Below are positions 62,838 through 63,347 of a DNA stretch of 64,000 bases, piece by piece. Source of the stretch: Candidatus Margulisiibacteriota bacterium (GTDB lineage: Bacteria; Margulisbacteria; Termititenacia; CAZZFK01); the NCBI GenBank assembly GCA_042562495.1, contig JBHPMC010000004.1, positions 405 to 64,404 on the forward strand, read 5' to 3'. How positions within the stretch are numbered: the stretch's first letter is position 1; each line of letters opens with the position of its first letter. The position numbers were made by a program, and so were the translations under genes. The notes beneath the pieces are model-generated. The model did no database searches. It saw only the letters and a program-made list of their open reading frames with translations, and was not told where the DNA came from.

Positions 62838-62851
62838 TTAGTGGTTTTAAC

Positions 62852-62971
62852 AGGGATTCTTCGCCCGTGACATACTTATGCCCTGGATATAGTCAGAATG
62901 ACAGAGGTAGTACGACAACTATCATTCTGACTATTACCAGGATAGAAGTATTATATGGACGAAGAATCCCT
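62852..62971. repeat. Nested palindromic element, copy 2 (~120 bp), between trpC and the GIY-YIG gene
   Basis: Outer inverted repeat: agggattcttcgccc (62852-62866) with ggacgaagaatccct (62957-62971), 14/15. Inner inverted repeat: cctggatatagtcagaatga (62882-62901) with tcattctgactattaccagg (62922-62941), 18/20. Confidence 0.8.
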
Positions 62972-62980
62972 TTATTACTT

Positions 62981-63295
62981 CTACACCAGTTTAAAATCCC
63001 GCCCCAGATCCTTCCAATTAGGATTAAAACCTCGGATAAGTGCTTCTTTTTTCTGTCTTACCCATCCTTTTAACATCTTCTCTTTTGCTATTGCTGTATA
63101 TATACAACCAAAAGTTTCAAAATATACTAATTTGTTTACTGAATATTTTTTTGTAAAACACTTCTTGAAGCCGTACTTATGTTCAATTACACGTCTTTCT
63201 AAGTTATTGGTAATACCAATATATAATGTACCCGACCTGCTAGCCATTATATAAACATAGTATGTGCGCATTTGTTGTTTAGACGACCTGGCCAC
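62981..63295 (-). CDS. Small GIY-YIG nuclease-family protein (COG2827/YhbQ-like)
   Basis: 104 aa. YYVYIMASRSGTLYIGITNNLERRVIEHKYG is the GIY-YIG signature. It is antisense to the surrounding trp genes. Confidence 0.85.
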   Translation of the reverse strand: MARSSKQQMRTYYVYIMASRSGTLYIGITNNLERRVIEHKYGFKKCFTKKYSVNKLVYFETFGCIYTAIAKEKMLKGWVRQKKEALIRGFNPNWKDLGRDFKLV

Positions 63296-63328
63296 AGCTC
63301 TGGTTCTTTTTCTATATTTCAGATATTT

Positions 63329-63337
63329 TGGTATAAT
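63329..63337 (+). promoter_or_regulatory. Extended -10 element (TGGTATAAT) immediately upstream of trpF
   Basis: TGGTATAAT spans 63329-63337, and the trpF ATG at 63348 follows 10 nt later. No SD lies between them. Confidence 0.45.
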
Positions 63338-63347
63338 CTTTCCTCAA

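Follow-up and report, generated by a model that had tools for sequence, protein, structure and literature searches.

How a small nuclease gene on the opposite strand and a long palindromic element came to lie together between trpC and trpF, and whether the two belong to each other, is the question raised by one end of the window, by which we mean the whole 64,000-nt stretch of DNA that was analysed here.

The insert between trpC and trpF

The trp run at the end of the window includes trpE (58851-60257), trpG (60259-60840), trpD (61084-62106), trpC (62100-62837, plus strand) and trpF (63348-63971, plus strand). The first three are named from their ORF translations and from tblastn matches in relatives, while the Pfam check within the run covered TrpC (indole-3-glycerol-phosphate synthase; PF00218, E 1.4e-79) and TrpF (PRA isomerase; PF00697, E 3.8e-48), which form the left and right flanks of the insert. 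An exact-protein look-up of TrpC for strain variants returned no record. The junctions of the run are mostly tight, except those between trpG and trpD (243 nt) and between trpC and trpF, where the interruption of about 510 nt given in a preliminary description of this DNA is confirmed as a spacer spanning 62838-63347.

Within this spacer a minus-strand open reading frame (62981-63295) codes for a protein with a single GIY-YIG nuclease domain (PF01541, E 2e-13), and no further Pfam or NCBIfam family scored above the cut-off in this protein. The frame can be read from a GTG at 63295 to give 104 aa, in which the domain spans residues 12-83, or from an ATG at 63271 to give 96 aa. We prefer the shorter reading because its start matches that of the homologs, of the ortholog in the nearest relative (L119, discussed below) and of a recorded 96-aa product (P0001). 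Hence the gene, here termed ssn, probably spans 62981-63271 with its stop codon and encodes 96 residues; the antisense GIY-YIG gene of the preliminary description stands as to its domain, and its length of 104 aa is probably an overestimate. The draft genome (1.30 Mb in 36 contigs, 67% complete) contains one small GIY-YIG gene; a second was not found in it and may be missing from the draft. The sole other PF01541 match in the genome is a 583-aa ORF, which on size alone we take to be UvrC. The spacer between the divergent starts of ssn and trpF (63272-63347) has promoter-like hexamers on both strands (minus, 63354-63325; plus, 63289-63318), and pattern searches found in it no unit of the repeat described next, so that the upstream repeat customary at related loci is absent.

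On the other side of the gene, 9 nt separate its stop codon from the end of the 120-nt hairpin (62852-62971). Folded as single-stranded DNA, this element reaches -32.2 kcal/mol, against -9.7 +/- 2.3 in shuffled sequences (z = -9.7), which bears out a hairpin beside the gene; its two arms (62852-62911 and 62912-62971) are 77% complementary and so fall short of the near-perfect pairing first ascribed to them. The hairpin is made of two inverted copies of a shorter, oriented two-box element, (T)GTCAYTCTGA ... GAAGARTC(YCT), that is, an inverted doublet of two long-loop units whose tags point inward; we call these SRM units, after the Ssn-related motif introduced below. Unit L (62852-62903, minus strand) reads T-GTC-ATTCT-GA-(28-nt loop)-GA-AGAAT-C-CCT and retains an intact TGTC tag (pattern match C31:63259-63306, equal to window 62855-62902). 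Unit R (62920-62971, plus strand; pattern match C31:63325-63372, equal to window 62921-62968), whose tag has become T-ATC by mutation, follows immediately 3' of ssn and has the orientation usual for downstream units, a rule drawn from the 80 homolog loci considered below. The 16 nt between the two tags (62904-62919) form the tip of the long hairpin. Both units thus lie 9-130 nt beyond the stop codon, and none flanks the gene on its 5' side.

The wide junction between trpG and trpD holds a doublet of the same kind with its tags pointing outward. Its left half (60887-60928, plus strand; C31:61292-61329) reads TGTC-ACTCT-GA...GA-AGAGT-C, and its right half (60948-61011, minus strand; C31:61352-61414) is a degenerate unit, GTC-GTTCT...AGAAT-C, with a 53-nt loop. 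As to the sequence said to be common to this element and the long hairpin, the 12-nt word ggacgaagaatc is indeed found again at 60948-60959, in reverse-complement form, while the proposed core GTCATTCTGA is present in the trpG-trpD element only in the forms GTCACTCTGA and GTCGTTCTGA, each matching at 9 of 10 positions.

We then searched the whole genome with the two-box pattern (GTCAYYCTGA, up to 70 nt, GAAGARTC), which recovered 13 units against none or one in five shuffled genomes; in all 13 the C..G or T..A pairing between the boxes is kept. Together with two variants from a looser search, this amounts to 15 units at nine sites, all nine of them intergenic and mostly in short spacers between co-directional genes, with inverted doublets at six. 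Four stem variants occur, each fully paired between the boxes (ACTCT/AGAGT, ATTCT/AGAAT, ACACT/AGTGT and ATCCT/AGGAT), and the tag is TGTC followed by A in 12 of the 15 units, the remaining three having ATC, TTC or GTCG. Short units of 25-31 nt, of which TTGTCACTCTGAGCGCAGCGAAGAGTCTCT is one example, consist of a 5-bp stem, a tandem G·A/A·G mismatch in Y-GA-R context, two to five further pairs and a loop of 3-5 nt. Such a context is favourable to stable sheared G·A pairing in DNA. Long-form loops measure 28-53 nt, and units end in a TCT or CCT tail; those on C12 and beside ssn, five in number, carry a 28-nt loop insert and do not form the SRM stem when folded alone. The dispersed units are mostly of the short ACTCT form, those adjacent to ssn of the long ATTCT form, and no two of the 15 are near-identical.

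The Ssn family and its repeats

[quoted passage not shown] They bind a hairpin repeat solely as single-stranded DNA and cut it a few nucleotides to its 5' side, whereas the opposite strand, double-stranded DNA and RNA are left intact (Chenal et al. 2025, Nat Commun 16:2388, PMC11893778). The Neisseria repeat is termed NTS, CGTCATTCCCGCGMAVGCGGGAATCYRG, and its general form the Ssn-related motif (SRM), which lies near 71% of the published homologs and on both sides of 42%; in N. meningitidis, SsnA lowers transformation by NTS-bearing DNA (PMC11893778). That study took tblastn E < 1e-10 to SsnA as its criterion for homologs and identified Y6, Y17 and E64 as catalytic by mutagenesis (PMC11893778).

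By this criterion the protein of the window qualifies as a homolog, matching N. gonorrhoeae at E 1e-12 in a tblastn search of a 7.3-Gb plasmid collection, in which the two N. gonorrhoeae records matched are 2.17-Mb chromosomes. Our comparison with Neisseria was made with the N. gonorrhoeae homolog in place of N. meningitidis NMV_0044: the window protein is 43% identical over 89 aa to a 94-aa N. gonorrhoeae ORF (pairwise E 9e-24), around which nine canonical NTS copies are found in the 1.2 kb to either side, and the published Y6, Y17 and E64 align to Y7, Y17 and E64 of the window protein. No Ssn structure was present among the PDB entries searched.

The locus therefore shares with the Ssn/NTS systems a single GIY-YIG domain of about the 94 aa typical of the family, the catalytic Tyr, Tyr and Glu, and a (C/T)GTC-tagged hairpin that stands beside the gene, inverted relative to it, and is also dispersed in intergenic spacers. 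It differs from them in that the stem contains the tandem G·A/A·G mismatch (TCT-GA-GCG...CGC-GA-AGA), in the one-sided rather than two-sided placement of the repeats, in the 28-nt loops near the gene, and in having 15 units where those systems have hundreds. The published SRM pattern, HGTCWYN(0-2)YYVSBRHN(0-5)WNVSBRGN(0-2)RNCYNB, has no match in this genome and matches 13 of the 80 homolog loci; the units here miss it because the G·A pair breaks its S position. Apart from the G·A pair the published build is retained: the units have the tag, a stem whose first base is A, and a C following the palindrome. Based on these likenesses in sequence, we file the insert gene as a putative member of the Ssn family, and its repeat as one of the same build and of a different stem subtype.

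The tags also recall the CGTC/TGTC-tagged REP superfamily, which includes Neisseria dRS3 and Rickettsia RPE-4 and RPE-6 and for which no partner enzyme was named (Di Nocera, De Gregorio & Rocco 2013, PMC3733652). Both have a TGTC tag, an A-T first stem pair, an intergenic location, frequent inverted dimers and, in the short form of our units, short loops. However, members of that superfamily are described as having a continuous stem of 8-9 bp, a loop of 4-5 nt and a CCA tail (PMC3733652), whereas in the units here 5 bp are followed by the G·A/A·G mismatch and 2-5 bp, and the tail reads TCT or CCT.

Gene and repeat among the homologs

The preliminary description had suggested that nuclease and repeat belong together and had taken such a relationship to be one not yet established for this small GIY-YIG family. 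The first part is right, and the second was overtaken by the biochemical and genomic demonstration of the partnership in 2025 (PMC11893778), in view of which the locus by itself adds little. We turned to the 80 nearest homolog loci, taken as one genome per species, 48-65% identical and distributed over more than 20 phyla, among them Planctomycetota, Patescibacteria, Acidobacteriota, Pseudomonadota, Bacteroidota and Bacillota. A loose hairpin pattern (GTC-A-x4...rc-C) had yielded 139 matches genome-wide against about 160 in shuffles and is thus uninformative at that scale, so a pattern of this kind was applied to gene flanks only, and with a shuffle control. This build-only test (GTC, five bases, up to 75 nt, their reverse complement, C, within 300 nt of the gene) gave 197 matches near the 80 homologs against 21.5 in shuffled flanks (maximum 33), an approximately nine-fold enrichment; close to the gene there are 4.2 matches per kb, and farther off 0.76 per kb. 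A tagged hairpin occurs within 300 nt in 69 of the 80 loci and on both sides in 40, the main layout being an upstream unit (+), the gene and a downstream unit (-). The exact word GTCATTCTGAGCGNAGCGAAGAATC adjoins the gene in 12 of the 80 loci, typically in this same order. Homologs in genomes of the same phylum as the window are flanked by near-canonical NTS, such as TGTCATTCCCGCGCAGGCGGGAATC in L105, and G·A-mismatch hairpins flank 27 of the 80 nearest homologs.

In a maximum-likelihood tree of 93 proteins, the rows were labelled by the stem of the flanking repeat as tandem G·A (30 rows) or fully paired (30 rows). A single change on the tree, on a branch with support 86/84, accounts for the distribution of the two labels, and this single-change split is recovered in 84% of the bootstrap trees; with shuffled labels about 20 changes are needed on average, and in none of 500 shuffles was the number as low as one. 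Host phylum, by comparison, needs 25 changes on the rows that carry both labels. With repeat class needing one change and phylum 25, the gene passes between phyla along with its type of repeat. The window protein groups with homologs that have NTS-like repeats in their flanks and falls on the G·A side of the tree, the Neisseria homolog on the fully paired side. The enzymes with biochemistry all belong to the clade opposite that of the window protein, the G·A clade being known from sequence. One bipartition amounts to one event and is compatible with co-evolution of enzyme and site, short of proof; even so, a split of repeat classes and protein clades that needs one change across phyla offers cheap comparative support for co-evolving enzyme-site pairs.

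In light of this association and of the inheritance described next, we propose with considerable confidence that the insert is an Ssn module, consisting of a nuclease gene and its own recognition repeats, with a mode of action that would follow from homology, and that it represents an old, vertically inherited insertion.

Inheritance, mobility and predicted action

The nearest protein to the window ssn product is P0002 (99 aa), encoded on a 3.5-kb contig (L119) from another sample (run DRR204120). The two are 69% identical by BLASTP, with 65 of 96 aligned residues identical (68%), and the contig has the gene order of the window: trpC, a hairpin doublet accompanied by one more, partial unit, ssn in antisense orientation and trpF, whose product is 84% identical to the TrpF of the window. 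The doublet of L119 also folds (z -6.1), and all four boxes differ in concert between the two loci, ATTCT/AGAAT having given way to ACTCT/AGAGT (T to C and A to G) with all pairings kept. Between the same loci ssn has a dN of 0.24 and trpF of 0.11, with synonymous sites saturated (dS 2.1 for trpF and not computable for ssn); that ssn persists at this dN with saturated synonymous sites indicates that the gene has been kept by selection.

Twelve relatives from the phylum have trpC beside trpF, 15-40 nt apart (in one case about 200 nt) or fused, and ssn is absent from the junction in all 12; similarly, the trpG-trpD junction measures 6-30 nt in three relatives. In the comparison of junctions proposed in the preliminary description, the close relative has the same site filled, and empty trpC-trpF sites are found only in distant relatives. 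These insertions are hence lineage-specific but old. We suggest that the module entered the trpC-trpF junction before the split from the relative with the 84%-identical TrpF. Its transmission since then has been vertical, with purifying selection acting on the gene, and its present behaviour is that of a settled gene and not of an element on the move. A module that stays in place under selection while its stems change in a compensatory way, as in this pair, is more in keeping with a domesticated function than with continued jumping.

The strongest rival reading, which would add to the Ssn module rather than replace it, is that the module is or was an autonomous mobile element, with Ssn as a mobilising GIY-YIG 'transposase' or homing nuclease and the gene-less doublets as its non-autonomous passengers, like REPINs for RAYT transposases. 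An insertion-sequence-like layout (NTS-ssnA-NTS) and the parallel with REP/RAYT were noted in the Ssn study itself, which left mobility as a hypothesis (PMC11893778). In the REP/REPIN-RAYT and IS200/IS605 systems (references 50-53 of PMC11893778), too, a small nuclease gene is flanked by inverted hairpins, and by analogy the gene-less inverted doublets, the single gene copy per genome and a presumed recognition of hairpins in single-stranded DNA would be further points of likeness. Several observations from the present locus agree with such a history: the insert is missing from the trpC-trpF junction of the 12 relatives; the trpG-trpD doublet fills a junction that is short in three relatives; the closest homologs (50-60% identical) are found in unrelated phyla and are no more distant than those of phylum relatives, which are at most 56% identical and patchy in distribution; and gene and repeat class stay together across approximately 25 switches of phylum. 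Furthermore, the 67%-complete genome has no match to PF01797, and thus no Y1/RAYT/IS200 transposase that might serve the repeats instead.

Against this, there is one gene copy, there are no near-identical units, the upstream repeat is lacking so that the repeats are one-sided, and inspection by eye revealed no target-site duplication at the trpC-trpF insert or at the trpG-trpD doublet, so that the locus does not have the make-up of an insertion sequence. The vertical inheritance at saturated synonymous distance under purifying selection likewise argues for residence, and the inverted units would place the predicted nicks on opposite strands, unlike in IS200/IS605. The enzymes differ as well, RAYT being an HUH tyrosine transposase and Ssn having a GIY-YIG hydrolase fold; GIY-YIG enzymes hydrolyse DNA, and we know of no strand joining by any of them. 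No movement has been observed; phage records contain no homologs, and of the 33 'plasmid' records matched, mostly megaplasmids, chromids or mislabelled chromosomes, 32 are typed as non-mobilizable. Thus, of the mobile or formerly mobile cassette initially suggested, the variable presence and the spread across unrelated phyla hold up, while the single copy, the vertical inheritance in the close relative and the missing signs of movement speak against it, and we regard an autonomous element with passenger doublets as an unlikely, if not negligible, elaboration of the Ssn module.

Much less probable is that the hairpin is an element of RNA only, a two-way terminator or mRNA stabiliser whose adjacency to the nuclease is meaningless. 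It does sit between the convergent trpC and ssn, all nine sites of the repeat are intergenic with mostly co-directional neighbours, and REP-type hairpins often follow genes and can function at the RNA level (PMC3733652). On the other hand, no intrinsic terminator or terminator-like site was called at the hairpin, and an Rfam search of this region of the window and five homolog loci matched no family for the repeat; what it returned was a group II intron in L080 and miRNA-like matches attributable to chance. An unpaired, orienting tag conserved across phyla, the roughly nine-fold enrichment beside homologs and the co-segregation of repeat class with clade are also difficult to reconcile with such a role, and the published enzyme is inactive on RNA (PMC11893778). 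That the gene is a housekeeping repair nuclease of the UPF0213/YhbQ type, lying by chance beside an unrelated repeat, is extremely improbable: the UPF0213 proteins BH0048 and EF2693 (1ZG2 and 1YWL) share its fold and size and are the nearest solved structures, but their matches (E 3.5e-5 and 8.4e-5) are far weaker than that to the Neisseria Ssn homolog, presence among relatives is patchy, and the repeat association spans many phyla. To our knowledge, moreover, UPF0213/YhbQ proteins have no repeat partner.

Returning to the Ssn module, homology with the tested Neisseria and Wolbachia enzymes predicts that the protein would bind a unit only on the strand that is single-stranded and folded into the hairpin, and that recognition would read the stem sequence and the C that follows it. 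The nick would fall a few nucleotides 5' of the TGTC tag, with the complementary strand, duplex DNA and RNA spared. Given the inward tags at trpC-trpF, both predicted cuts would lie in the 16-nt tip of the long hairpin, while the outward tags of the trpG-trpD doublet would direct cutting to positions just outside that element. Unit R may be bound but not cut, since its tag has undergone a G-to-A change and the tag is the part most important for cutting (PMC11893778). The 13 other units at eight further intergenic sites, the trpG-trpD spacer included, would serve as further targets. As a whole, the units here form a tandem G·A/A·G stem subtype, which accompanies one protein clade. Candidate cellular roles, by analogy, are the trimming of incoming or replicative single-stranded DNA, as in the control of transformation in Neisseria, and the spread of the module's own repeats.

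Taking the last of these further, we speculate, while thinking it doubtful, that Ssn modules are self-propagating, with the nicking of single-stranded DNA beside hairpins driving the copying of the gene and its gene-less doublets into tight spacers between genes and from phylum to phylum, and with the G·A clade as a separate, co-evolved specificity class. If this were true, Ssn would be the long-missing mobilising enzyme of the CGTC/TGTC-tagged REPs and a new transposition-like enzyme. The G·A clade may also point, as far as its sequences indicate, to a further specificity class for tools that act on single-stranded DNA. Finally, as the G·A class, found beside 27 of the 80 nearest homologs, goes undetected by the published motif, the published survey probably undercounts the Ssn genes that have repeats beside them.

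Spacers and junctions within the trp operon

The spacer separating trpF from ssn, the minus-strand gene for a single-domain GIY-YIG nuclease (window 63272-63354), contains promoter-like hexamers on both strands, at 63289-63318 on the plus strand and at 63354-63325 on the minus strand, as well as the TGGTATAAT word (63329-63337) pointed out in the preliminary description. Given these hexamers together with TGGTATAAT, trpF, which lies downstream of the antisense insert, is probably transcribed on its own.

At the trpG-trpD junction, two relatives belonging to one genus (L114, region 1106-2125, from G029:C99, and L116, from G012:C36) carry an insert of about 450 nt. 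By eye, this insert looks like it encodes a small endonuclease domain of the DUF559/Vsr type, which forms an in-frame C-terminal extension of TrpG (a 339-aa ORF) and is flanked by CCCCC/GGGGG hairpin words. This apparent small nuclease cassette is of another kind, and it occupies the junction where the window has a doublet of SRM hairpin repeats.

Repeat arrays and a group II intron match at ssn homologs

In a Thermoanaerobaculia MAG, the ssn homolog is flanked on either side by GTCATTCTGAGCGGAGCGAAGAATC, which occurs at least 12 times (L054 2179-3300); many of the copies are arranged head-to-tail with 10-nt spacers. A Syntrophomonadaceae MAG has three ssn copies, two of which are near-identical (L044 and L045) and show a tandem array (2241-2450) of a ~58-nt repeat containing GGCTTTCATAGCAATGACAGGAGCGTTGCCCTTAAGGATGGCAAAAACAGAG immediately upstream of their 5' SRM; the third is L032. 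Upstream of the SRM cluster and ssn homolog of a Clostridiaceae MAG, at a distance of ~150 nt, we observed a match to group II intron domain V/VI (L080 3-76; RF00029, 53.6 bits, E 4e-8).

An SRM-bracketed stretch elsewhere in the source genome

On another contig of the source genome, a 3.3-kb stretch (G000 C12:85839-89203) has a single long-loop SRM unit at one end and an SRM doublet at the opposite end. It codes for two proteins of 726 and 146 aa, the larger of which has an N-terminus resembling a signal peptide, and is neighbored on either side by a gene for a very large protein (840 and 1287 aa). This arrangement is reminiscent of the published clustering of NTS repeats, the Neisseria form of SRM, around surface-protein genes.
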